Part shown: positions 2 through 58,973 of the stretch, one piece after another
Layout of the letters: each line of letters begins with the position of its first letter
Numbering within the stretch: position 1 is the first letter of the stretch
Assembly: GCA_021789935.1 (NCBI GenBank)
Contig: JAJYIR010000007.1
Span: 11,050-75,049 of the forward strand
Direction: 5' to 3'
Length of the DNA stretch: 64,000 bases
Origin: Nitrospirota bacterium
GTDB lineage: Bacteria; Nitrospirota; Thermodesulfovibrionia; Thermodesulfovibrionales; JdFR-88
The notes under the pieces: model-generated
The model's input: the letters and a program-made list of their open reading frames with translations, nothing else
What the model was told of the DNA's origin: nothing
Database searches by the model: none
Program-made: the position numbers and the translations under genes

Positions 2-310
2 GATAAGGGCTACTTCAAAAATGAGGCCGGCGAGGGAAGATTCATCGCCCTCTGGCCGAGGGCCAACGGGATACTTGATCCCCTGTTGTACAAAAGAAAC
101 AGAAGGATAACCGTGGCCGGAACACTGGCCGGAACCAAAAGCGGGAAAATAGGCTCCGCAAACTATGTGTTCCCGGTTATAGACGTGCAGCAGATATTCC
201 TTTGGAAAGAAACATATTATTATCCTCCTTCCTACTATTACTATCCGTATTACCCGTATGATTACTGGTATCCCTACGGCCCCTATCCGGGTTTTGGTGT
301 CTATTGGTGA
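2..310 (+). CDS. Slp-like outer-membrane lipoprotein paralog, 3' part (5' end outside window), with Tyr/Pro-rich C-terminal tail
   Basis: The frame is open from the window edge to TGA 308-310. ...EGRFIALWPRANGILDPLLYKRNRRITVAGTLAGTKSGKIGSANYVFPVIDVQQIFLW aligns colinearly with the next gene. The tail is KETYYYPPSYYYYPYYPYDYWYPYGPYPGFGVYW. Confidence 0.6.
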   Translation, partial: DKGYFKNEAGEGRFIALWPRANGILDPLLYKRNRRITVAGTLAGTKSGKIGSANYVFPVIDVQQIFLWKETYYYPPSYYYYPYYPYDYWYPYGPYPGFGVYW

Positions 311-981
311 TGCCAGGTATGTGCCGCTTTTTATTTTTTGTTTTTTTTCCAAAAAGGGCCTTCCCGGCTGTTTGGCTGTTTCTTCCTTTGGCGCTTGCTG
401 CCTCCTGCGCCGTAAGCCCCATAAAGAGCGTTTATCTTGAGCATGGAATAAGAGATGTCTCGATACCGGCGATACAGGAAAACCAGAACCTGTACAAGGG
501 GAGGCTTTTCCTGCTGGGAGGCATAATACTGAACACCCAGGTCACGGATGAGGGCTCTCTGGTGTATGCCATATATGTGCCTGTAGACTCGGAAGGGACT
601 CCGATGCCGTTGCAGGCGGCGGGCGGCAGGTACATAGCCCTGTGGCCAAAGTCTTACGGTACGCTGGAGCCGTCGATATACAAGAAAAACCTGGAAATAA
701 CGGTGGCAGGCGAATTCGTGGGCCTTCGCAAAGGCAAGCTGGACAAGGCCGATTATGACTACCCGGTGTTCAGGATAGAGCAGATATACCTTTGGCATGG
801 AGAGCAGTATGCGCCCGCCTACTATTACCCGTATTACTATTATGCGCCCTACTATTCGTATCCTTACAATTACCCCTATTACAACTATCCATATTATTAC
901 AACTCTCCGTATTACAGATACTATAATTATCCGTACAACAGGCCGTATTACCGTCCCGGGCCATATTACTGGCGCCGCTGA
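310..981 (+). CDS. Slp-family outer-membrane lipoprotein with about 60-aa Tyr/Pro/Asn C-terminal tail
   Basis: Signal peptide plus lipobox (LPLALAAS-C). The core GGRYIALWPKSYGTLEPSIYKKNLEITVAGEFVG...YDYPVFRIEQIYLW resembles Slp/YeaY as I recall it. The ATG at 310 overlaps the upstream stop (TGATG); TTG 304 and GTG 307 are alternative starts. Confidence 0.65.
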   Translation: MPGMCRFLFFVFFPKRAFPAVWLFLPLALAASCAVSPIKSVYLEHGIRDVSIPAIQENQNLYKGRLFLLGGIILNTQVTDEGSLVYAIYVPVDSEGTPMPLQAAGGRYIALWPKSYGTLEPSIYKKNLEITVAGEFVGLRKGKLDKADYDYPVFRIEQIYLWHGEQYAPAYYYPYYYYAPYYSYPYNYPYYNYPYYYNSPYYRYYNYPYNRPYYRPGPYYWRR

Positions 982-1010
982 GCGGGAGTTTTTTTCAGGA
1001 AACCGCCGCC

Positions 1011-1040
1011 TTGACAACCCCCGGGCCAACTTCTTATACT
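1011..1040 (+). promoter_or_regulatory. sigma-70-like promoter candidate upstream of ABC ATPase genes
   Basis: TTGACA (1011-1016), then 17-18 nt, then TATACT (1035-1040). It lies about 120 nt upstream of ATG 1161. Confidence 0.4.
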
Positions 1041-1103
1041 CAATCCTGGTATGCATTCACCGCTTAGAGGCCTCTATGCCTTTTCAGAAGCTCCAAACCA
1101 AAG

Positions 1104-1132
1104 ATCCGGAAGGACGCATTCATCCGGAAGGA
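1104..1132 (+). repeat. Direct repeat ATCCGGAAGGA x2 (18-bp period) in the oppD-like leader
   Basis: Identical 11-mers at 1104-1114 and 1122-1132, read directly from the sequence. Confidence 0.6.
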
Positions 1133-1160
1133 TACATTTAGCCCAGGGACAACATTCAAA

Positions 1161-2153
1161 ATGTCCGCCGGCATGACCGCTCCGCTTCTTGAGATCAAGG
1201 ACCTGGACATCTTCTTTGCCCGTGCGAAGGGCGGGGTGAAGGTGGTAAACAAGTTGGCCTTTTCCATCCAGCGGGGCAGCATATTCGGCCTGGCCGGCGA
1301 GTCCGGTTCCGGCAAATCCCTTACCGCTTTATCCATCATGGGGATTTTGCCAAACGGTGCCAGGGCCGAAGGGAGCATAGAATTCAAAGGCAGCGGGATA
1401 CTGGGCCTGCCGTCTGAAAAAATGCGCTCCATAAGAGGGAAAGAGATATCAATGGTGTTTCAGGAGCCCATGACATCCCTGAACCCTGTGCTCAAGATCG
1501 GCTACCAGGTAAGAGAGGCCCTGCTGGCCCACCTGCCTATATCGAAAAAAGAGGCGCAGACCCGCGCCGTCCAATTGCTGCGCTCCGTGATGATCCCGGC
1601 GCCGGAGCAAAGGATAAACGATTACCCGCACCAGCTTTCGGGCGGGATGAGACAGCGCGTGATGATTGCCATGGCAATCGCCTGCAACCCGTCCCTGCTG
1701 ATAGCGGACGAGCCCACGACCGCCCTGGACGTGACCATAGAGGCCCAGATACTTGAGCTGATAGACACGCTGAGGGCCGAAAGGGACATGTCTGTTTTGC
1801 TCATAACCCATGACCTTGGCGCGATAGCCCGGCATGCCCGGACGGTAGGCGTAATGTATGCGGGCCGGATTGTGGAGCTTGCTCCCGTGGGGGAGATCTT
1901 CTCCGGGCCGAAGCATCCGTACACGATAGGCCTTCTTGAATCGATACCCTTCAAGAACAAAAGGGGGATGCCTCTGAAACCGATTCCCGGAAGCGTTCCG
2001 CCCCCCTGGGGGCTTCCGCCTGGATGCAAATTCTCCGACAGGTGCTCCTTCAAGATTCCGCCCTGCCAGCAGGCCGAACCGGAGTTCGAAGAGATCACTC
2101 CCGGACATTTCTCCAGATGCATTCGCGCAAGGGAGATGAAATGGACCCTTTGA
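1161..2153 (+). CDS. Oligopeptide/dipeptide-type ABC transporter ATP-binding protein (OppD/DppD-like)
   Basis: Walker A GESGSGKS, signature LSGGMRQR, Walker [14 protein letters not shown]-terminal oligopeptide-ABC extension with Cys motif [15 protein letters not shown]. Confidence 0.93.
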
Positions 2154-3142
2154 TAAAGGCACAGGACCTGAGAAAGTTCTTTCCGTTCAGGAAAGGGCTC
2201 TTCGGCAGGGAGATGGTGCTTAAGGCTGTGGACGGGGTGAGCCTGGAGGTGGCCGAAAACAGGGTGCTTGGCGTAGTGGGAGAAAGCGGCTCAGGGAAGT
2301 CCACCCTTGCCCGCATGGTCACCGCGCTTGACAGGCCTACCTCGGGTGACGTCCTTTTTCGCGGCAAGAGCGTTTTCTCCATGGACCGCCATGAGCTTAA
2401 GCAGTTCAGGCGGGCAGTGCAGATAATCTTCCAGGACCCTTTTGCCTCCCTTAACCCGCGGGCCACTGTTTTTGACACCATAGCCGAACCCATAAGGATA
2501 CACCGGCTGGCGGAGAAAAAGGACATCGAGCAGAAGGTGGCCGGGCTTTTGAAGGACGTGGGGCTGGGCATGGAGATACTGCGCCGCTATCCGCACGAGT
2601 TCAGCGGAGGCCAGAGGCAAAGGATATGCATAGCGAGGGCACTTGCCGTTTCGCCCCGGCTCATCGTGGCGGACGAGCCGCTTTCAGCCCTGGACGTAAG
2701 CATCCAGGCGCAGATACTGAATATACTCTCCGATCTGAAAAAACGCGATCGGATATCCTTTTTGTTCATAAGCCATGACCTGAGAGTGGTGGAATACCTG
2801 AGCGACGAGGTGGCCGTGATGTACCTGGGGAAGGTCGTGGAGCGCTCCGGGGCTGAGGGGCTTTTTGAAAAACCGCTTCATCCCTATACCGTAGGGCTCT
2901 TCGCATCGGTCCCGGCCATAAAGGCCAGGGAGATGGGGGCGCCTTTTGACGAAAAGATGGAGGAAAAAGTGGAGAAGGCGGCCCCGAAAGGAGATATCCC
3001 AAGCCCCATAGACATCCCGCCCGGCTGTCCGTTCCACCCAAGGTGCCCAAAGAGGTTTTCACCCTGCGACAAGGCCATCCCCCAGCTTATGGAACCCGCC
3101 GGTCAGCCCGGCAGGCTGGTAGCCTGCCATCTCTGGAACTAA
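2141..3142 (+). CDS. Oligopeptide/dipeptide-type ABC transporter ATP-binding protein (OppF/DppF-like)
   Basis: [29 protein letters not shown] and the C-terminal [15 protein letters not shown]. The start is set at ATG 2141 ([10 protein letters not shown]...), overlapping the upstream stop by 13 nt. The track ORF start at 2024 lies inside the previous gene. Confidence 0.93.
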
Positions 3143-3145
3143 ACC

Positions 3146-3344
3146 TAGTGTCCTGTCCCGTAAATAGCTTTACATAACAGCTTTCAAGTAAGGTTTAGAA
3201 ACATAAGCATCTCTAAGGTCGTCATGCCCGAGTGTCTTAATCGGGCATCCATTTTGACGTTTTTGTAAATTGGATTCCCGCCTGCGCGGGAATGACGGCC
3301 CAAAACATTCCTGAGCCAAATGTAAAGAAGTGTTAGGGACACTA
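3146..3344 (+). mobile_element. MITE-like hairpin-rich repeat, copy A
   Basis: About 90% identical by eye to 51051-51312. The ends TAGTGTCCTGTCCC ... GGGACACTA are imperfect terminal inverted repeats. Internal hairpins are ATGCCCG-N11-CGGGCAT and ATTCCCGC-CTGC-GCGGGAAT. No ORF. Confidence 0.7.
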
Positions 3345-3406
3345 CAGCTTGCCGCCTCTGGATTCGTACTGACGGCCTGGGCCCTTAATGTCCGGCCGCT
3401 GACGGT

Positions 3407-3907
3407 TTACCTGAGTATCTCTTTTATATCATGCTCAATGGAGGCGGGGTCCGGCGGGCCTATGTATTTTTTCACTATCAGGCCGTTGCTGTCTATGAGG
3501 AAGGTAACCGGAATCGGCATCACGCCGTAGAGGGTGTGCACGGCCGAACGGGAATCTATCAGCACGGGATAATCCACGGGGTGTGTGGCCTCGAAGTTTT
3601 TCACTTCGATTGCGGTGTCCTTGGTTATCCCGAAGACCCTCAATCCCCGCATCTCATATTTTTTATAAAGCCCGTTGAGCAAGTTGATCTCGCCCACACA
3701 GGGAGGGCACCAGGTCGCCCAGAAATTGAGGACCACAACATTGCCGCTTAGCCCCACTCCGGAATAGACCTTTCCGTTCGTGCCGCTCAATGAAAATTCG
3801 GGGGCCGCCGCGCCCACCTGAAGGGCTCGCGCGCTTTGCGGAACCGCGCCCACCAGAAGCAGAAGGGCCAGCGGCAAAAAAACGGAAAAAACAAAAATCT
3901 TTCCCAT
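3407..3907 (-). CDS. TlpA/ResA-like periplasmic thiol:disulfide oxidoreductase (thioredoxin fold)
   Basis: N-terminal signal peptide, the WATWCPPC active-site motif, and AhpC/TSA-like length. Confidence 0.85.
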   Translation of the reverse strand: MGKIFVFSVFLPLALLLLVGAVPQSARALQVGAAAPEFSLSGTNGKVYSGVGLSGNVVVLNFWATWCPPCVGEINLLNGLYKKYEMRGLRVFGITKDTAIEVKNFEATHPVDYPVLIDSRSAVHTLYGVMPIPVTFLIDSNGLIVKKYIGPPDPASIEHDIKEILR

Positions 3908-3989
3908 GAGGCAATTATATCAGAGAAAACCCCGGAAAACGGCGCAAAATACGCCTGAAAATTTCCTTTTTCCCGCCTGATGATTTTTC

Positions 3990-4019
3990 TTGACAACTTT
4001 TGCATTTTTGATGTAATTT
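3990..4019 (+). promoter_or_regulatory. sigma-70-like promoter candidate for speH
   Basis: TTGACA 3990-3995, followed by TGTAAT/TAATTT at 16-18 nt spacing. RBS GAAGGGGGG lies before TTG 4078. Confidence 0.4.
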
Positions 4020-4077
4020 AACTGCTTGAGTCAAGGGCGGTAAGCCCTTAATTTACCGTTAGAAGGGGGGTAGAGAA

Positions 4078-4494
4078 TTGCATGCCTTAGGAACCCATCT
4101 TTTAGTGGATTTAAGGGATTGCAACATCGAGGCAATCAGGGATCTGGAGTATGTAAAGGATTCGCTGGTACAGGCCGCGAAAGCGGCGTCGGCAACAATA
4201 GTGGATGTCTCCTTCCATGAGTTCAACCCGTTTGGAATAAGCGGAATGGTTGTTATAGCGGAATCTCATCTGAGCATTCACACCTGGCCCGAATACGGCT
4301 ATGCAGCGGTTGACATCTTCACTTGCGGGGACCTCATAAAACCTGAAACCGCAGCCTCTTATCTGATAGAGCGGTTCGGCAGTCTAAACCCATCGGTGGT
4401 GGAGATGAAAAGGGGCATAATTTCTCCCTTTGACAAGAAGCTGCCCCACAAAGTTACCCAGGAAATGGATAGCGAGCAAGTCCCGCAGGGTTAG
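4078..4494 (+). CDS. speH: S-adenosylmethionine decarboxylase proenzyme (small pyruvoyl type)
   Basis: GTHLLVDL...AESHLSIHTWPEYGYAAVDIFTCG, including the self-cleavage ES motif. TTG start with a strong RBS. Confidence 0.9.
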   Translation: MHALGTHLLVDLRDCNIEAIRDLEYVKDSLVQAAKAASATIVDVSFHEFNPFGISGMVVIAESHLSIHTWPEYGYAAVDIFTCGDLIKPETAASYLIERFGSLNPSVVEMKRGIISPFDKKLPHKVTQEMDSEQVPQG

Positions 4495-4570
4495 CGAGCG
4501 GCTACTATCAAATCAGAAGACCCTGCATTCGATTCCCGAAGGGAATAAAATAGAAAGCCTGTCATAGAAT

Positions 4571-4597
4571 AAAAAGGCCGGCGGTACCTGGCCGGCC
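4571..4597 (-). terminator. Rho-independent terminator candidate downstream of pgk
   Basis: On the minus strand, GGCCGGC-N8-GCCGGCC is followed by TTTTTATTCT. It sits in the convergent speH/pgk gap. Confidence 0.5.
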
Positions 4598-4739
4598 AAA
4601 CCAAAGCGGGAGGGAAACGAAGAACCTCGCGCGCGGGATTTTTATTTCTGCTTTGCGCCCCCTCGCCGTTAAGAGGAAAAACAAGAGGGAAAAACTTTCT
4701 TTCTTACAGGCAGGGGGCATATATGGTATTTTTTCCTTT

Positions 4740-5957
4740 TTAATTCCTGTCCTTGAGCGCCGCTATGCCGGGCAGTTCCTTCCCCTCCAGAAGCTGAAGA
4801 GATGCGCCTCCGCCTGTAGAGATGAAGGAGATCGAATCCGAAACCCCCGCCCTGCTTACGGCGAGGTCCGTGTCCCCCCCGCCCACTATGGTGAGCGCGT
4901 AGGCATCGGCCACGGCGTGGGCTATCGAAAAGGTGCCGCGGCTGAAGGCGTCCATTTCGAACACACCCATAGGGCCGTTCCAGATAACGGTCTTCGCGTT
5001 GGCGAGGGCCTCTGAAAAGAGTTTTACCGAGGCGGGCCCGATGTCCAGGGCCTTCCAGCCCCTGGGTATCTCCTGCGTGGTGACGAGCTTTGTTTCGGCT
5101 TGGGGCTCCATGCTCTGGGCAACCACGCAGTCGACGGGCAGATAGAACCTGACATTGTTTTTTACAAGGCTCAACCTTATCTTTTCGGCAAGCTCAAGCA
5201 TCTCGTTTTCAACCAGGGAATCGCCTACTTCATACCCCATGGCTTTTATGAAGGTAAAGGCCATGCCGCCGCCGACGATGACCTTGTCCACCTTGTCTAT
5301 GAGGTTTTCGAGGACCCCTATCTTGCCGGACACCTTGGCCCCGCCAAGTATGGCCGTGAAGGGCCGGACGGGATTGCTCACCACCCCCTGCAGGTAACCC
5401 ACTTCTTTTCTCAACAGGAAACCCGCGACGGCGGGAATGAACCTGGGGATGCCCACGATGGAGGCGTGGTTCCTGTGGGCGGCCCCGAAGGCGTCGTTCA
5501 CGTATATTTCCGCCAGGGAGGCCAGCTCCTGCGCAAACTTCTCATCGTTTGCCTGCTCGCCGGAGTCGAACCTCAGGTTCTCCACAAGCAGCACGTCGCC
5601 AGGCCGCATTTTGGTTATCGTGTCCTTGACGGTTTTGCCGTGTATTTCCGGGCTGAACAGGACCTCCTTGTTCAGGAGGCGCTGAAGCCTCCTTGCGACG
5701 GGGGCCAGGCTCCATTTTGGTTCCGGCTTGCCCTGAGGTCTTCCCATATGGGAGGCGAGGATTACCTTTGCCCCTTCATCTATCGCGTAGTTTATGGTGG
5801 GAAGGGCGGAACGTATCCTCCGGTCATCGGTTATCATCATGTTTTCATCCAGGGGCACGTTGAAATCCACACGGATGAATACGCGCTTGCCCTTAATCTC
5901 GATGTCCTCTATCGTGAGCTTTCCGAAATCGCCTTGTCCAAATGCCCCCCTTGCCAT
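4740..5957 (-). CDS. pgk: Phosphoglycerate kinase
   Basis: KRVFIRVDFNVPL, the ILASHMGRP-type motif, and STGGGASL near the C-terminus. The start is set at ATG 5957, 4 nt after the gap stop. The track ORF start at 6029 overlaps gap. Confidence 0.95.
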   Translation of the reverse strand: MARGAFGQGDFGKLTIEDIEIKGKRVFIRVDFNVPLDENMMITDDRRIRSALPTINYAIDEGAKVILASHMGRPQGKPEPKWSLAPVARRLQRLLNKEVLFSPEIHGKTVKDTITKMRPGDVLLVENLRFDSGEQANDEKFAQELASLAEIYVNDAFGAAHRNHASIVGIPRFIPAVAGFLLRKEVGYLQGVVSNPVRPFTAILGGAKVSGKIGVLENLIDKVDKVIVGGGMAFTFIKAMGYEVGDSLVENEMLELAEKIRLSLVKNNVRFYLPVDCVVAQSMEPQAETKLVTTQEIPRGWKALDIGPASVKLFSEALANAKTVIWNGPMGVFEMDAFSRGTFSIAHAVADAYALTIVGGGDTDLAVSRAGVSDSISFISTGGGASLQLLEGKELPGIAALKDRN

Positions 5958-7076: not shown

Positions 7077-8345
7077 TCATACGCGGCACATGACAAAGCC
7101 GGTCATTATCTTGGGGTAAAAATAAGTGGATTTTGGCGGCATCCGCTGCCCGGAAAGTGCCACATCCATTACCTCGTTGACGCTTGTGGGGTTCAGGAAG
7201 AAGGCGGCGTCCCATGAGCCGCTGTTCACAAGCTCAAGGACGCGCGAGGGGTCCATCTCATAGGCGATTTCCGTTGCATGCAGAAGTTCTTTGCCTCTTT
7301 TGTTCAGCACGAACTCATGCAGAATAACCACGTCCAGCTCACGGAGCGAGGGATGGAAGTCCCCCAGGTCCAAGCCGTCGTATATGGCAATAAAGCTTTT
7401 TCCCCCGGCATAAATGCCGAAGGTGTTTTTCATCCCCTTGATGTTTTTCAGGATGTCCGCGTCTGCCGGAAGCTCCCGCGTCTCGAAATGCTCCCCCATT
7501 GCGCCGGGTATGTCTTGTTTTTGGGCTGACGGGCCACCCAGCTTAAGAAGCCTGTGCGTGGGCAGTACGGTGAGGCCGCCGTCAGAGATGTTTGCAAGAA
7601 ACATCATCACATAGTTGAAGGGAGCGTCTTTTCCGCCGGGGGCGTCTCCCGGCTTTTCCCGCATCTGGCGCTGGTTTTCAAGTGCGGTCTCATAGCGGTG
7701 GTGGCCGTCGGCGATGAAGACAGGCTTGCCGCTCAAATCCTCCTGGAAGGCCGCTATGTCATCGGGTGAGTCTATTATCCAAAGCCGGTGTTTGAACCCG
7801 TCGGCGTCGGCGGCCTCCAGATACGGCGGGACGCTGCCTTCAGAGAACCTTTTAAGCACATCGGAGGCCCGGCTGTGCGTGTTTTCGTAAAAGGAAAAAA
7901 CAGGGCTTGTGTTCATGCCGGTGGCTTTTATAAGGTTCAGGCGGTCTGAACGCGCCTTCGAATGAGTGCACTCATGCGGATATATGCCCTGGCCCAGAGG
8001 CGTCAGCCTTACCATGGCGAAGACCCCCATCAGCCTCTTTTGCTTCCCTTTTGCCGAGTACCGGACCTCATAGGCATAAAGGCATGGGCGCTTTGTCTCT
8101 TTAAGGACGCCCTCCCTGAGCCACTCGTCTATCAGGGAAGCGGCGCGGGTATATTTGTTGCCGGTCTCATTGTCGCCAGGCTGGTCCTGCCCTGCGTCTA
8201 TATGGACGATGTTGAACGGGCTTTTTGCAAAAAGGGCCTGCTTTGCCGCCGGCGATATGACGTCGTAAGGAGGCGCCATAACTCCTGCGGCATCGATCTT
8301 TTGGGGATCGTAACAGATCCCCTTAAAAGGGATGATCTCTGCCAA
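7077..8345 (-). CDS. DUF1015 domain-containing protein
   Basis: IIPFKGICYD..., PHECTHSKARSDRLNLIKATGMNTSPVF and IADGHHRYETAL match my recollection of DUF1015. Confidence 0.8.
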   Translation of the reverse strand: MAEIIPFKGICYDPQKIDAAGVMAPPYDVISPAAKQALFAKSPFNIVHIDAGQDQPGDNETGNKYTRAASLIDEWLREGVLKETKRPCLYAYEVRYSAKGKQKRLMGVFAMVRLTPLGQGIYPHECTHSKARSDRLNLIKATGMNTSPVFSFYENTHSRASDVLKRFSEGSVPPYLEAADADGFKHRLWIIDSPDDIAAFQEDLSGKPVFIADGHHRYETALENQRQMREKPGDAPGGKDAPFNYVMMFLANISDGGLTVLPTHRLLKLGGPSAQKQDIPGAMGEHFETRELPADADILKNIKGMKNTFGIYAGGKSFIAIYDGLDLGDFHPSLRELDVVILHEFVLNKRGKELLHATEIAYEMDPSRVLELVNSGSWDAAFFLNPTSVNEVMDVALSGQRMPPKSTYFYPKIMTGFVMCRV

Positions 8346-11927: not shown

Positions 11928-12048
11928 GGTTGTCAAAAAATATTCACCCTCGACGGGCTTCGGAAGAGATTTTCTTTGATAATAGTAAAGAAACAGCAAA
12001 AAAATGGATTATTTCCCGTTAAACTCCAAAAACGGCTGTTTTTATCTC

Positions 12049-12077
12049 TTGCCTGAACCCCTATATTGTTATATATT
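12049..12077 (+). promoter_or_regulatory. sigma-70-type promoter of groESL
   Basis: TTGCCT (12049-12054), 17 nt, TATATT (12072-12077), immediately followed by CIRCE. Confidence 0.6.
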
Positions 12078-12079
12078 TT

Positions 12080-12106
12080 TTAGCACTCACTAAATATGAG
12101 TGCTAA
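12080..12106 (+). promoter_or_regulatory. CIRCE operator (HrcA binding site)
   Basis: Perfect TTAGCACTC-N9-GAGTGCTAA, located 56 nt upstream of groES. Confidence 0.95.
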
Positions 12107-12161
12107 CAAGGAATGAAGGTGTTGATTTTTTTAAAACAACCAGGAAAGGAGAGAAAAACGC

Positions 12162-12425
12162 ATGAAATTCAAGCCTTTGAAGGACAGGGTGTTCGTAAGC
12201 TATGCCGAGGAGGAGGAAAAGACCAAGGGCGGCCTCTATGTGCCTGACACGGCGAAGGAGAAGCCGCAGAAGGGCAAGGTCGAGGCGGTAGGGTCCGAGG
12301 TGAAGGAGATAAAGGTAGGGGATTCGGTGCTCTTTGACAAGTATTCGGGTTCCAAGGTGAAGATGGACGACAAGGAGTATCTCATCATCAAGGAAGAGGA
12401 CGTGCTCGGAATAGTCGAGGGGTAA
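12162..12425 (+). CDS. groES: Co-chaperonin GroES
   Basis: [12 protein letters not shown]...[22 protein letters not shown]. It lies upstream of groEL. Confidence 0.97.
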
Positions 12426-12482
12426 GGTTGCGGGAAAGCAAAAGCAAAAAGCAAAAAATAAAAAAGAAGATTTAAAACATAA

Positions 12483-14135
<1,653 letters not shown>

Positions 14136-14177
14136 GAAAGACCTCGCTGGCGGCAAGTATCAAGCCGCAAGGCACAA

Positions 14178-23459: not shown

Positions 23460-24305
23460 TTAAAACATCTTCTCCAGGAGCCCTTCGAGCTGTTCCAGGC
23501 TATAGTACTCTATGTGGAGCATGCCGCCTTTTTTGCCCTTGTGCTTCACACGCACCTTCGTGCCAAGGGATTTTGAGAGCCTGTCTTCCAGGTCCGCGAT
23601 GTTAGGGTCCGCCAGCTGGGGTTTTTTGCCAGCGTTTTTGCCTGCAAGGGAGTGGTTTTTTTCTTTTCCGCCCTTGAGAAGCCGCTCCAGTTCCCGCACG
23701 GAAAGCCCCTCGTCAGCGGCCTTGGCCGCTATCCCGGACTGTTGAGATTGAGAATCAATGCCCAGAATCACCTTGGCATGCCCCATCGAAAGCTTGCCGT
23801 CCGCAACAAGCGTTCGCACCTCCTCGGGCAGTTTGAGCAGACGAAGGTGGTTCGTGATGGTGGTGCGCTCCATTCCCAGCCTTCCCGAGAGGGCCTCGTG
23901 CGTGAGGGAGAACTCCTTCTGCAGTCTTTCAAGCGCCTCGGCCGTCTCGACCGGATTTAAGTCCTCGCGCTGCAGGTTTTCTATTAGAGCTATCTCAAGG
24001 GAGTCCTCCTTGGCAGCCTTTTTAAGTATCGCGGGCACGCGCTTTAAACCGGCCAGCCTCGCGGCGCGAAGCCTCCGCTCCCCTGCGATGAGCCTGAAGT
24101 TCCCATCACCGCTGGCGCATACGATCAGGGGCTGCAGTACCCCTTTTTCCTTTATTGAGGCCGCAAGCTCCTTCAGCCCCTCTTCGGAAAACCTCTTCCT
24201 TGGCTGGTCCGCCCATGCGGCGACCCGCTCTATCTCGATTTCAATGGCCTCCATGCCCGATTTGGGCAGGAGCGCCTCAATTCCCCGTCCGAGTGCAGTT
24301 TTCAT
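23460..24305 (-). CDS. parB: Chromosome partitioning protein ParB/Spo0J
   Basis: LGRGIEALLP, PLIV...FRLIAGERRLRAARLAG, and the helix-turn-helix FSLTHEALSGRLGMERTTITNHLRLL. ATG 24305 overlaps the parA 3' end. Confidence 0.95.
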   Translation of the reverse strand: MKTALGRGIEALLPKSGMEAIEIEIERVAAWADQPRKRFSEEGLKELAASIKEKGVLQPLIVCASGDGNFRLIAGERRLRAARLAGLKRVPAILKKAAKEDSLEIALIENLQREDLNPVETAEALERLQKEFSLTHEALSGRLGMERTTITNHLRLLKLPEEVRTLVADGKLSMGHAKVILGIDSQSQQSGIAAKAADEGLSVRELERLLKGGKEKNHSLAGKNAGKKPQLADPNIADLEDRLSKSLGTKVRVKHKGKKGGMLHIEYYSLEQLEGLLEKMF

Positions 24306-25056
24306 TTCTTGAAAAAAACTCCTTTGCAAGTGCAAGATAGCTCTGAGCCCCTTTTGACCGGGCGTCGTACATGATGGCAGGCTTGCCGTGGCTCGGGGCC
24401 TCGGCCAGGGCGATGTTACGGGGGATGACCGTTGAGTAGACCTTCCCTTTGAAATGCTCCCTCAGGTCTGCCTCAACCTGTCTTGTAAGCGTATTTCTTG
24501 GGTCGTACATGGTTAAAAGCACGCCACCCAGTTCAAGCGAGGGGTTGTAAGACCCGCGGACAAGGGACAACGTGTGGGAGAGCATCCCCAGGCCTTCCAG
24601 CGAATAATATTCGCATTGCACGGGCACAAGTACGGACTGAGCGGCCACCAGGGCATTGAGCGTGAGGAGCCCCAGTGAGGGCGGGCAGTCTATTATGATA
24701 TACCGGAACCGGTTCCTGACCGTGGAGAGGGCATCAGCAAGGATGCGTTGCGCCCCATCGCGTCCCGCAAGCTCTATCTCTGCCCCGAGCAGATCTACTG
24801 TGGAGGATACAACCCATAGCCTGTCATGGGCGGCGGGCTTTATGACCCCTTCCATGCTTTGCCTGCCGGAAAAAACGTCATAAAGGCCGGGAGGCTCTTT
24901 TTGAATCCCCAGCCCGCTGGTCGAATTCCCCTGCGGGTCGGCATCCACAAGAAGGATGTCCGCCCCGGCAAGCGCCATGGAGGCCGCCAGGTTGACGGCG
25001 GTGGTTGTCTTGCCCACTCCGCCTTTCTGGTTCACTATGGCTATGATATTATCCAT
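24277..25056 (-). CDS. parA: Chromosome partitioning ATPase ParA/Soj
   Basis: Deviant Walker A: IAIVNQKGGVGKTTTAVNLA. Confidence 0.95.
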   Translation of the reverse strand: MDNIIAIVNQKGGVGKTTTAVNLAASMALAGADILLVDADPQGNSTSGLGIQKEPPGLYDVFSGRQSMEGVIKPAAHDRLWVVSSTVDLLGAEIELAGRDGAQRILADALSTVRNRFRYIIIDCPPSLGLLTLNALVAAQSVLVPVQCEYYSLEGLGMLSHTLSLVRGSYNPSLELGGVLLTMYDPRNTLTRQVEADLREHFKGKVYSTVIPRNIALAEAPSHGKPAIMYDARSKGAQSYLALAKEFFSRNENCTRTGN

Positions 25057-25940: not shown

Positions 25941-25955
25941 CCGGCCCTGACGGAT

Positions 25956-25971
25956 TGTTCCACGTGGAACA
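25956..25971. other. parS centromere-like site candidate
   Basis: TGTTCCACGTGGAACA is a perfect 16-bp palindrome, 20 bp when extended (ATTGTTCCACGTGGAACAAT). It is a symmetric variant of the consensus TGTTNCACGTGAAACA and lies 0.9 kb from parA. Confidence 0.7.
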
Positions 25972-25982
25972 ATGGCAATTTT

Positions 25983-26780
25983 TCACCTGTAGACTTCCCG
26001 CAAGATATCAGCCCATATATATATCGCCGATGCGGAAATGACCGCGGCAAGGAGCCATCTCAGGAATTTCGTATTGGCCTTTCTGCCTGCTTTCCCCCCG
26101 AGGTATGCCATTGGGATGGCCCCGGCCAGGAGGGCGGCCGCCAGATCGAACCGGACCTGTCCGGTCGCTATCTTCCCGGTTATCCCTGCGGTCGCCGAAA
26201 AAAGGCCTATGGCGAGCATGCTGCCCAGGGCCACCCTCAACGGGATCTTGAGGACATAAAGCATAATCGGGATTATGATGAATGCGCCGGCCTGCCCAAC
26301 CATGCCCAGCAGGAAGCCTGTTGCGGCCCCGCAAAGGATGGCAAGGGGGGAATTGAAATCCACATGTTCCCCTGAAAGGTCGTCATTTGCGTAGCTGCGG
26401 GGGATGAGCATCATTATGGCGGCGAAGAGGGCCAGAACGCCGTATATCACAAGAAGCGGCCCGTCACTCATCCGCTTTGAAAACAGGGAGCCTGCCAGCG
26501 ACGAGCAAAAGAGGGCAAGCCCCAGTGAAATAACAAGGCCTTTGCTTATAAGCCGCTCTCTCCTGTAAAAAAAAGTGGCCGTGAGCGTCGCAAAAAAACC
26601 CTGGGTCATGGTAAGGCCGGTTATGCCCTTGACCCCCAAGGGCGGGAGTCCGAAAAGGGCCGGCACATAGAGGAGGAGCGGGAACATAATGATCCCGCCC
26701 CCTATGCCCAGCATCCCTGAAAGAAAGCCCCCAAGCCCTCCTGCGGCAATCAAAAAGAGGTAAAGCGAAATGGGCGTCAT
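25983..26780 (-). CDS. TauE/SafE family anion permease
   Basis: A roughly 265-aa polytopic protein with GGxxGxxGxGGG-type repeats (GGLGGFLSGMLGIGGGIIM; GAATGFLLGMVGQAGAFIIIP). Its ATG overlaps the selD stop (ATGA). Confidence 0.8.
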   Translation of the reverse strand: MTPISLYLFLIAAGGLGGFLSGMLGIGGGIIMFPLLLYVPALFGLPPLGVKGITGLTMTQGFFATLTATFFYRRERLISKGLVISLGLALFCSSLAGSLFSKRMSDGPLLVIYGVLALFAAIMMLIPRSYANDDLSGEHVDFNSPLAILCGAATGFLLGMVGQAGAFIIIPIMLYVLKIPLRVALGSMLAIGLFSATAGITGKIATGQVRFDLAAALLAGAIPMAYLGGKAGRKANTKFLRWLLAAVISASAIYIWADILREVYR

Positions 26781-27847
26781 GCCTCTACACTTATCCTGCC
26801 TTCGGCAATAAGCGCCCCTTCGGTAACATCACCAATATGGGCCGCCAGGATGCCTTCCTCCTCAATAAGCCGCGAAAGCCTTTCCAGGTTCTCCCGGGGG
26901 ACAAATATCAGAAGTCCGCCCGATGTCTGGGCGTCGTTAAGCAGTATCTTGTGCACTTCGCTCACATTCCCCGCCCATTTTACGAAAGGTCCATAGTTTT
27001 TGAGATTGGCAATCGTTCCGCCAGGGACCACATTTTGTGCCGTAAGCTTTTCGGCGTCAGTGAAAAAAGGTACGCGTGAAGCAAAAATGTTTGCCTTCAC
27101 GCGGCTTGCCGAAAGCACCTCATTCAGGTGCCCCAGCAGCCCAAAACCCGTGACATCGGTTGCGGTGCTGACCCCCACCTGCACCATTATCTCGCCTGCC
27201 CGCCTGTTAAGCGCGGCCATAGACCTCGTGAACTCCGCTATCGCGTCCTCGCCCACGCGCCCGGCCTTGATGCCGGTAGAGATTATCCCTGTTCCTATGG
27301 GTTTCGTAAGGACTATGGCATCACCCGGACGGGCTTTCGCATTATCAAGGATATTATCCGGGTGGATGAGGCCCATGACCATAAAGCCGAATTTGGGCTC
27401 TTTGTCCTTAATGGTGTGCCCGCCGATTATGGGCACCCCCGCCTCAGCCATCTTGTCTATTCCCCCCTGGATAATCTGTTTCAGGACAGGGAAAAAATCC
27501 GGGTCTTCGGGAAACATGGCCACGTTAAGGCTCACCACGGGTCTTCCGCCCATGGCGTAGACATCCGAAAGCGAGTTTGCGGCAGCTATGGCCCCGAACA
27601 TGTAGGGGTCGTCAACTATCGGGGTAAAGAAATCAACCGTCAGCACGGCCGCCGTGTCGCCGTTAATCCTGTATACGCCGGCGTCATCCGCATTTGAAGA
27701 GCCTACAAGGACATTGGGGTCCATTATAGGCGGCAGCTGCCCCAGCACCTGGGACAGGTCCTTAGGACTGAATTTTGCCGCTCACCCGGAACAGCTTGAC
27801 ATCTCCGTGAGCTTAAAGGTTTTTTCTTTTTTCCCTTTAATATCCAT
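26777..27847 (-). CDS. selD: Selenide, water dikinase (selenophosphate synthetase) with in-frame UGA selenocysteine codon at 27782-27784
   Basis: Track ORFs 26777..27748 and 27782..28027 are in the same frame, separated only by TGA. The joined N-terminus MDIKGKKEKTFKLTEMSSCSG-U-AAKFSPKDL matches E. coli ...SHGAGCGCKISPKVL, with U at Cys17 and K at +3. Downstream: DDAGVY, VDFFTPIVDDPY, SDVYAMGG, TDVTGFGLLGH, DAQTSGGLL. RBS GGGGTGGAG. Confidence 0.88.
27730..27781 (-). other. Candidate bacterial SECIS structure immediately 3' of the selD UGA
   Basis: mRNA: UGA-[GCGGCA]-N20-[GUCCCAG-GUG-CUGGGGC]-AGC-[UGCCGC]. The lower 6-bp helix starts at the first nt after UGA. The upper 7-bp helix has a GUG loop. 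Folded by eye only. Confidence 0.4.
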
Positions 27848-27908
27848 TAGCTCCACCCCTTTCATATTTTTGAGATGATTTCCGGACGTTTTATTTGTTT
27901 TCCGCCAT

Positions 27909-28250
27909 TTATCTTTTTCTTTCTCCGGGATACTTCCCTTTTCTGGTAACAGGACAGCACGCGGGTGCGGGCAGAGGGGAATCGTACTTTTTCTCCAGTA
28001 TTTCAAGCAGGTCTGGAATGAAGGCATCCACGAGGAAGTAACATCTCAGTCGGCCGTCCACGTAGTAGTCGATTATTCCCCTGTTTCGCAGCGCCGCCAG
28101 GTGCTGGGAAACGTTGGGCTGATTGATGCCTAAAAATTCGCTAAAATCGCTCACACATTTTACGCCCTTGGAGAGCTCTCCCAGTATCTTTACCCGGGCA
28201 GGATGGGCCACGGCCTTCAAAAGCTCTACCTTGTCCATTAATTCGTCCAT
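27909..28250 (-). CDS. ArsR/SmtB family transcriptional regulator
   Basis: LKAVAHPARVKILGEL...CVSDFSEFLGINQPNVSQHLAALR (winged helix-turn-helix). The C-terminal tail has a vicinal Cys pair, PAPACCP. Confidence 0.88.
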   Translation of the reverse strand: MDELMDKVELLKAVAHPARVKILGELSKGVKCVSDFSEFLGINQPNVSQHLAALRNRGIIDYYVDGRLRCYFLVDAFIPDLLEILEKKYDSPLPAPACCPVTRKGKYPGERKR

Positions 28251-57620: not shown

Positions 57621-57770
57621 CCCTGATGATTGATGGGCCTCCAATTTTGTACTATGATTTTTAGAAGCGCAGGACGTTTTCCCTTTCCACCAAAGACCAA
57701 GCAATTAAAAAAACACTTTTTCCCAAAGCAAAAAACAAAGCACTTTCTATCAAAGGAGGACCACGGAAAA

Positions 57771-58973
57771 ATGGCGGAAGTTTATCATGCCCTTGGTCTT
57801 AACATGCACCAGCCCCCGGGAAACCTGCTTGCCCTCCACAATTCGCAGGAGAGGTGGGAGGCAAGGCAGATCCTCTGGTGCTACGACAGGCCCACCCGCA
57901 TGCTGGAAGGTTACGAGGACGTTGCCCGGCCCCACATGAGTTTCTCCGGCACGCTTTTAAAACAGCTGGAAGACCCTGCCATCCGGGAGACCTTCCAGGA
58001 TGTGGTGGACGTGGAGGACTTCCTTTCCCGCTACAGGCGCTCGCAATGCATAGAGTTCCTGGGGACTGGCCTCTACCACCCGGTCTACCCGCTTATACCT
58101 CCTGCAGACTGGGACACCCAGACCGCATGGTGGAAGGGCCTGGGGTGGAACCTGCTGGGCAGGGCCTGGTTTCAGCTTCAGGGTTTTTGGGCCCCGGAGA
58201 TGGGGTTTTGCATGGAGATGATACCCATGCTTAAAAGAAACGGTTACAGGTACGTGATAATCGATTCCATCTATATAAAGCCCAGGCGCCAGATGCGCTG
58301 GGAAGAGCAGCGTTACCGCCCGTATCTTGCCCGCTGGGGCGGCGAGGAGATTGTGGTTATACCGCGGGACAGGGAGCTTTCAAACGCGCAGGAATCCGGC
58401 CTGGACCCCGGATGGTTCCAGCACGAGGTCTACGAAAGGACAAAGCACTGCGATTTCCCCGCCCTGGTCACCACATGGACGGATGGGGAAAACGGAGGCT
58501 GGTTCCGCACCGTCCATGTGGATAGCGGTTTTTGGGGGCATTTCTACAGGCCCATACTGGACAGGTACAGGGCCGGGACCCTGGGCTTTACCCCCATACA
58601 TATAAACCGTTACCTGGACATGTTCCCGCCCTCCGAGGAGGTGGACATCTATCCCGGCGCGTGGAACACCGGGCACCACTGGGGAGGGGATTTCGGCCAG
58701 TGGACCGGTTCCCTGCTCCAGAAACGCGGGCTTGAGGAGCTGGGCAGGGCAAGCGCATATTACCGGCAGGTAAAACAGACCTTCGACCAGAGGGGCCATA
58801 CGGCGGGAAACCCGGAAGAGGTGCGCCACCTTATAACGTCGGCCTACGACCACATACTGAAGGCGGAGACAAGCTGTAACTTCTACTGGGGAAGCTGCTG
58901 GGTAAACCGCTCGTTTGACGGCATTGACCAGGCCTACCGGCTTCTGGATGCGGCCCGCTCCCTGATGCCCTGA
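57771..58973 (+). CDS. Glycoside hydrolase family 57 protein
   Basis: LNMHQPPGN, GFWAPEMGF (nucleophile region), WTDGENGGWF, and CNFYWGS. ATG 57771 is preceded by AAAGGAGGA. Confidence 0.8.
   Translation: MAEVYHALGLNMHQPPGNLLALHNSQERWEARQILWCYDRPTRMLEGYEDVARPHMSFSGTLLKQLEDPAIRETFQDVVDVEDFLSRYRRSQCIEFLGTGLYHPVYPLIPPADWDTQTAWWKGLGWNLLGRAWFQLQGFWAPEMGFCMEMIPMLKRNGYRYVIIDSIYIKPRRQMRWEEQRYRPYLARWGGEEIVVIPRDRELSNAQESGLDPGWFQHEVYERTKHCDFPALVTTWTDGENGGWFRTVHVDSGFWGHFYRPILDRYRAGTLGFTPIHINRYLDMFPPSEEVDIYPGAWNTGHHWGGDFGQWTGSLLQKRGLEELGRASAYYRQVKQTFDQRGHTAGNPEEVRHLITSAYDHILKAETSCNFYWGSCWVNRSFDGIDQAYRLLDAARSLMP

Follow-up and report, generated by a model that had tools for sequence, protein, structure and literature searches.

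A selD gene of Thermodesulfovibrionales Nitrospirota with a conserved in-frame UGA predicted to encode its catalytic selenocysteine

A 64,000-nucleotide stretch of contig JAJYIR010000007.1 from a Nitrospirota bacterium (assembly GCA_021789935.1; hereafter, the window) carries on its minus strand a selD gene that is split by one in-frame UGA (27782–27784). We propose that the gene is functional and that the residue of its catalytic N-terminal loop is selenocysteine (Sec), which would be inserted at this UGA by the standard bacterial mechanism, a reading to which we assign a probability of about 0.9. The reading frame is continuous across the UGA, the UGA falls in the catalytic Cys/Sec column of the family, it is conserved throughout the clade and the RNA that follows it is under constraint. 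SelD is frequently a selenoprotein in its own right. Indeed, 19% of the SelD genes in prokaryotes have a Sec codon, in every case at this same position (PMC4561486), and among prokaryotic selenoprotein families SelD ranks second in breadth of distribution (PMC13188914). The window selD adds to the known Sec-type SelD proteins, and it comes from a lineage in which every public model examined is truncated.

Two open reading frames (ORFs) were listed in this region, 26777..27748 and 27782..28027 on the minus strand. An earlier annotation of the same DNA, made from its letters without database searches (the sequence-only reading), had claimed that the two lie in one frame and are split by TGA 27782–27784 alone, and translation confirmed that this TGA is their sole separator. 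From ATG 27847 to position 26777 the translation comprises 356 codons with one internal stop only. The read-through product, MDIKGKKEKTFKLTEMSSCSG-U-AAKFSPKDLSQVLGQLPPIMDPNVLVG..., matches exactly the peptide given in that annotation, and the good ribosome-binding site that it had noted before the ATG is present as GGGGTGGAG (Table 1). The MDI... start is common to the window and its closest orthologs, L001 and L002, all of which have a 6–8-residue insertion after MDI (the N terminus in the window reads MDIKGKKEKTF...). Because of this insertion, Sec is residue 22 in the window and about residue 14 elsewhere.

Profile and structure comparisons, made with U replaced by C, indicate that the product is a selenide, water dikinase with predicted activity. 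It scored 362.3 bits against the TIGR00476 selD equivalog model (cutoff 125) and 327.9 bits against NF002098, also a SelD equivalog (cutoff 299), and both AIR-synthase-related domains are present, PF00586 in the N-terminal part (98.6 bits) and PF02769 in the C-terminal part (68 bits), in line with the SelD assignment of the sequence-only reading. The best matches in the PDB are SelD structures, namely those of Aquifex aeolicus (2yye, E = 2e-73) and E. coli (3u0o, E = 8e-64). That reading had placed the UGA at the position of E. coli Cys17, with a Lys three residues later, and these alignments bear it out: the UGA column coincides with the Cys residues of SSGCAAK (2yye) and GAGCGCK (3u0o), and in the window loop, SCSG-U-AAK, the aligned Lys lies three residues past the UGA column, as it does in both structures. 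U22 and K25 of the window protein are thereby aligned with Cys17 and Lys20, which we take to be the catalytic pair in E. coli numbering. The ATP- and metal-site Asp/Asn motifs DDAGVY, DFFTPIVDDP, NSLSDVYAMGG and TDVTGFGLLGH also align with 2yye and 3u0o.

The window protein resembles Sec-type bacterial SelD in family, in having Sec predicted at the same catalytic position and in the presence of a coding-region hairpin after the UGA; the loops SSGCAAK (2yye) and SCSG-U-AAK align residue for residue. It differs from known members of this type in belonging to an uncultured Nitrospirota lineage, with 61–81% identity even to the nearest orthologs from metagenome-assembled genomes (MAGs) in the genome collection, in having an N terminus 6–8 residues longer than most of the clade, and in its arsR-selD-tauE context. 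Compared with the Cys-type SelD of E. coli (3u0o), the fold family and all the aligned catalytic motifs agree, but the Cys there is encoded by UGC, with no recoding and no selenocysteine insertion sequence (SECIS).

To follow the UGA across the clade, we scanned for orthologs in one genome per species. It yielded 80 loci, each in a Nitrospirota/Thermodesulfovibrionales MAG; one of them ends inside the gene, and counts at the UGA column use the remaining 79. In every one of these, TGA stands directly before AAKFSP or ASKFSP, and it is never replaced by TGY. The peptide KLTxLSSC[AS]G is kept before the TGA, with an ATG about 13 codons upstream, again in 79/79 loci. The sequence-only reading had named orthologs carrying a sense codon plus frameshifts as the finding that would speak for a pseudogene; none of the 79 loci has a frameshift or a sense codon at the UGA column. 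Codons upstream of the UGA vary synonymously (2.34 bits at Leu −9 and 1.9 bits at Ala −2), and therefore this region is translated under purifying selection. With the UGA, its flanking peptide and the ATG conserved in 79 loci, the locus is neither a pseudogene nor the result of misassembly, and a start further downstream is excluded as well. Strict retention of UGA, never UGY, would mark the clade as committed to selenocysteine use. Two of the loci, L048 and L051, are contigs of one MAG (MFD01872.bin.2.231), each with a selD(UGA)-tauE pair; the two agree fully in the SECIS region but differ upstream of selD, which may reflect either a duplication or redundancy in binning or assembly.

Downstream of the UGA, the sequence-only reading had proposed a plausible bacterial SECIS, in which an outer stem beginning at the first nucleotide after the UGA encloses a 7-bp hairpin with a GUG loop. 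From the window we took 84 nt around the UGA, aligned them with 78 nt of every one of the 79 loci, and counted pairs of the proposed structure over 77 distinct orthologs. The GUG-loop hairpin, CUGUCCCAG-GUG-CUGGGGCAG, has 9 bp in the window, of which 7 bp are conserved in the consensus, in agreement with the 7 bp first described. Alone it folds with −13.6 kcal/mol (z = −3.2). Across the orthologs it is 93.4% paired, RNAalifold recovers it independently, and the G and U of the loop do not vary in any of the 80 sequences. Two pairs of the hairpin show compensatory changes (U-G/G-U/A-U/C-G and C-G/U-A); in some of these changes, the third position of a Gly codon shifts synonymously in step with replacements in the Ser/Ala/Ile/Leu codon across the stem. 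For the structure as a whole, the covariation score and the paired fraction both exceed those of all 500 column shuffles.

The hairpin also falls within all four criteria of the bacterial SECIS (bSECISearch) rules as quoted in a 2026 review (PMC13188914), as expected if the element is the SECIS first suspected here. Its 3-nt apical loop and 9-bp stem compare with permitted ranges of 3–9 nt and 4–16 bp; a G, which is required in the first two loop positions, comes first and is followed by U; the spacing of 33 nt from the UGA lies within the permitted 16–37 nt; and the minimum free energy is to be −7.5 kcal/mol or lower, against −13.6 kcal/mol in the window. Relative to the consensus element, the spacing is near the upper limit, and the interval is filled by a second small conserved hairpin or by a helix that pairs the UGA.

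The outer stem fared differently. It does fold in the window, where the whole structure (27730–27784), an outer stem enclosing two hairpins, is the minimum-free-energy fold (−26.5 kcal/mol, z = −3.1). Only 56% of its cells are paired in the orthologs, however, and its two outermost pairs are present in 20/77 and 10/77 sequences. We therefore rejected the outer stem as a conserved part of the SECIS, the outermost pairs being found in at most 26% of sequences; it is peculiar to the window and a few close relatives, and probably not part of the functional element. The small 5′ hairpin GUCC-UAA-GGAC, situated between the UGA and the core, is 92.5% paired in the orthologs with no compensatory change, and the codons under it show near-zero synonymous variation. 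In its place, a subgroup with ...SPAEL... sequences has a differently registered hairpin, UUCAGC-CCU-GCUGAA. RNAalifold offers an alternative helix at 27765–27787 (minus strand), in which GGNUGAG, the Sec codon included, pairs with UUCAG-CC; this helix is nearly invariant, shows no covariation, has one G-G mismatch in the window and could not form together with the small 5′ hairpin.

An independent measure of constraint, which assumes no structure, came from the entropy of synonymous codon choice, computed over those sequences that have the majority amino acid. Codons after the UGA are nearly fixed, with TCG at Ser +7 in 52/52, CTG at Leu +9 in 80/80 and TCC at Ser +10 in 60/60 sequences. Over a whole-gene codon alignment, normalised synonymous entropy was 0.23 at codons +4 to +15 and 0.86 elsewhere (Mann–Whitney p = 6e-9), and the 12-codon window with the least entropy anywhere in the gene begins at codon +4. 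Like the TGA shared by 79/79 loci, this minimum goes beyond chance. This collapse of synonymous entropy therefore indicates nucleotide-level constraint over approximately nt +10 to +45 past the UGA, with the GUG-loop hairpin at its centre. The 80 sequences also form a data set for coding-region SECIS elements.

By analogy with the established bacterial mechanism, SelB.GTP.Sec-tRNASec would bind the hairpin at 27737–27757, and the bound SelB complex would bring Sec to the UGA in the A site; were the codon not recoded, only a 21-residue peptide would be made. Selenophosphate, the product of SelD, is required for making Sec-tRNASec, and SelD would for this reason depend on its own pathway. Our understanding of selenoprotein synthesis is unchanged by the finding.

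Several points weigh against selenocysteine at this UGA. Covariation in the hairpin is modest, being limited to two pairs in related sequences and overlapping conserved codons, and the element may extend to the small 5′ hairpin or to the RNAalifold helix that pairs the UGA itself. No Rfam family matches the element, either at gathering thresholds over the whole window or at E <= 10 on 27650–27900. Nor does the 64-kb window hold a tRNA-Sec (ARAGORN found no tRNA in it and Rfam gave no match), and a model search of its ORFs of at least 422 aa found no selA or selB. That the genome of the window is competent to decode Sec is suggested instead by the clade-wide UGA and SECIS-like hairpin, by the selB-selC reported in groundwater Nitrospirae (PMC8124441) and by the complete selA/B/C/D set found in every selC*-containing genome surveyed, Thermodesulfovibrio among them (PMC5389517). 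A scan of the window for ORFs that continue across one or two in-frame TGAs returned nothing convincing as a further selenoprotein gene.

We also looked for a tRNA-Sec beside selD in 60 orthologous loci, and only L004 has a tRNA-Sec-like gene. This gene (946–1040, plus strand; RF01852, 58.1 bits against a gathering threshold of 47) has the anticodon GCA (Cys), lies 5 kb upstream of selD and is similar to the tRNACys termed selC* by Mukai et al. (PMC5389517). Around it, at 16–5880 of that locus, are genes for a LysR regulator of selenium metabolism (NF040786, 305 bits), a double-cubane reductase and its activase, a protein with a YdjY domain and tandem rhodaneses, together with arsR, selD(UGA) and tauE. 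The cluster looks like a selenium island, and its extra genes are absent from the window.

The strongest alternative to selenocysteine is that the UGA is read wholly or partly as Cys, or by near-cognate read-through, for example by a tRNA-Sec-like tRNACys with a UCA anticodon, which would allow a first active SelD to be made before any selenophosphate exists. There is precedent for such decoding: selC* tRNACys species with GCA or UCA anticodons occur in Thermodesulfovibrio and Nitrospirae, one selC* tRNACys can read a selD opal codon as Cys to give active enzyme, and the opal codon of Desulfomonile tiedjei selD is functional as Sec or Cys (all PMC5389517). The tRNA-Sec-like gene near selD in the relative L004 points the same way, but its GCA anticodon reads UGY and not UGA, and the window contains no such tRNA. 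Moreover, a conserved SelB-type hairpin together with TGA rather than TGY in 79/79 loci is what Sec insertion predicts, whereas plain suppression needs neither. We consider Cys decoding quite improbable.

Less probable again is that selD is a pseudogene, or that its true product is a truncated 323-residue protein from GTG 27748. Public gene models might seem to favour such a start. Among the 120 closest proteins in a large protein collection (286–333 aa, 81–92% query coverage), all start after the UGA; 17 sampled from the closest begin at the equivalent of GTG 27748 (MLGQLP...), other database models begin a few codons before that point but still past the UGA, and the ORF lister likewise chose GTG 27748. 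A product of this kind would, however, lose the Sec/Cys-and-Lys loop, whose counterpart in the solved SelD structures holds the catalytic residues. Furthermore, the 13–21 codons before the UGA are conserved as protein while varying synonymously, with the ATG kept in 79 loci, and the GTG itself (27746–27748) is the Val34 codon, the GUG of which makes up the apical loop in the conserved hairpin. For a pseudogene, frameshifts and other stops are lacking. As for the TGA being a sequencing or assembly error for TGC or TGT (Cys), one base change would suffice, but the same TGA in 79 independently assembled genomes or MAGs effectively refutes it.

With selenocysteine as the preferred reading, the 120 models (120/120 beginning after the UGA) are themselves mis-annotations of the kind that the sequence-only reading had foreseen when it stated that gene callers would truncate selD. 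The closest matches to the window in the protein collection are 95% identical for SelD and 99% for TauE. The main value of the finding is practical: a real, complete selD is systematically mis-annotated, and automated metabolic reconstructions of these Nitrospirota would list a truncated SelD without its catalytic loop.

Table 1. Features of the selD locus in the window, in order along the minus strand (strand "." denotes a feature with no strand assigned)
Feature	Position	Strand	Basis and remarks
ArsR/SmtB-family regulator gene	27909..28250	-	NF033788, 69.1 bits (cutoff 55); PF01022; 61-nt gap to selD
Shine-Dalgarno-like GGGGTGGAG	27851..27859	-	Upstream of ATG 27847; read from the sequence
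Full-length selD coding sequence (predicted)	26777..27847	-	356 codons including Sec22; ATG 27847-27845; stop TGA 26779-26777
In-frame UGA, predicted selenocysteine codon, residue 22	27782..27784	-	Cys alignment; TGA in 79/79 orthologous loci
Span of the whole structure first proposed	27730..27781	-	Outer stem GCGGCA (27776-27781)/UGCCGC (27730-27735)
Small 5′ hairpin GUCC-UAA-GGAC	27758..27768	-	Between the UGA and the SECIS core
Core SECIS candidate, 9-bp hairpin CUGUCCCAG-GUG-CUGGGGCAG	27737..27757	-	Apical GUG 27746-27748; 33 nt past the UGA
TauE/SafE-family membrane protein gene	25983..26780	-	PF01925, 135.3 bits (cutoff 32.6); ATG overlaps the selD stop (ATGA)
Palindromic hairpin between the convergent tauE and PilZ-response-regulator genes	25954..25973	.	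Terminator-like match on the plus strand; pattern only

In its genomic setting, selD is the probable middle gene of an arsR-selD-tauE operon, the transcript of which likely ends at the palindromic hairpin 25954–25973. Of the 73 orthologous loci with room for tauE, 52 have it immediately after selD; arsR immediately precedes selD in 24/75 and lies within a few kb in others. The C terminus of the ArsR protein carries ...APACCPVTRKGKYPG, a conserved tail of the form ...CCPVT[KR]KGKYPG, and a CCPVT tail recurs upstream of selD in L015, L016, L022, L023, L037, L038, L061 and L069. This regulator does not qualify as the sulfite-sensing repressor BigR, as it scored 44.6 bits on NF040642 (cutoff 155) and passed the generic NF033788 model only; it also scored below the TsoR equivalog cutoff.

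More speculatively, the arsR-selD(Sec)-tauE cluster of Thermodesulfovibrionia-like Nitrospirota could be a dedicated selenium-handling module, in which the permease would move selenium species, the CCPVT-tailed ArsR would sense selenium or sulfur species, and TauE production would be tied to Sec insertion. The proposal is a reasonable one, but we hold it tentatively and think it rather doubtful as it stands. If it were true, the overlap of the tauE start with the selD stop would couple permease output to Sec insertion 335 codons upstream. According to reviews, no high-affinity transporter for selenium has yet been found. Our literature search found nothing linking TauE/TSUP to selD or selenite, and at E <= 1e-20 hardly any TauE homologue lies outside this lineage, giving no independent cross-phylum support for a selD-TauE pairing.

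Elsewhere in the window, a pair of ORFs, each of about 545 aa, covers nearly the same stretch on opposite strands (12501..14135, plus; 12516..14156, minus), and the minus-strand ORF has no NCBIfam match. The strongest skews of the window are found at 12001–14000 (GC skew 0.117, AT skew 0.238). Two further large ORFs are without an NCBIfam match, one of 422 aa at 7077–8345 (minus strand; 1e-10) and one of 447 aa at 57630–58973 (plus strand; 1e-5). Finally, parB (ParB_N, HTH_ParB and ParB_C) and parA (AAA_31/CbiA) occupy 23460–25056 on the minus strand, 1–3 kb downstream of the selD cluster, and the window may lie near the chromosomal origin region.

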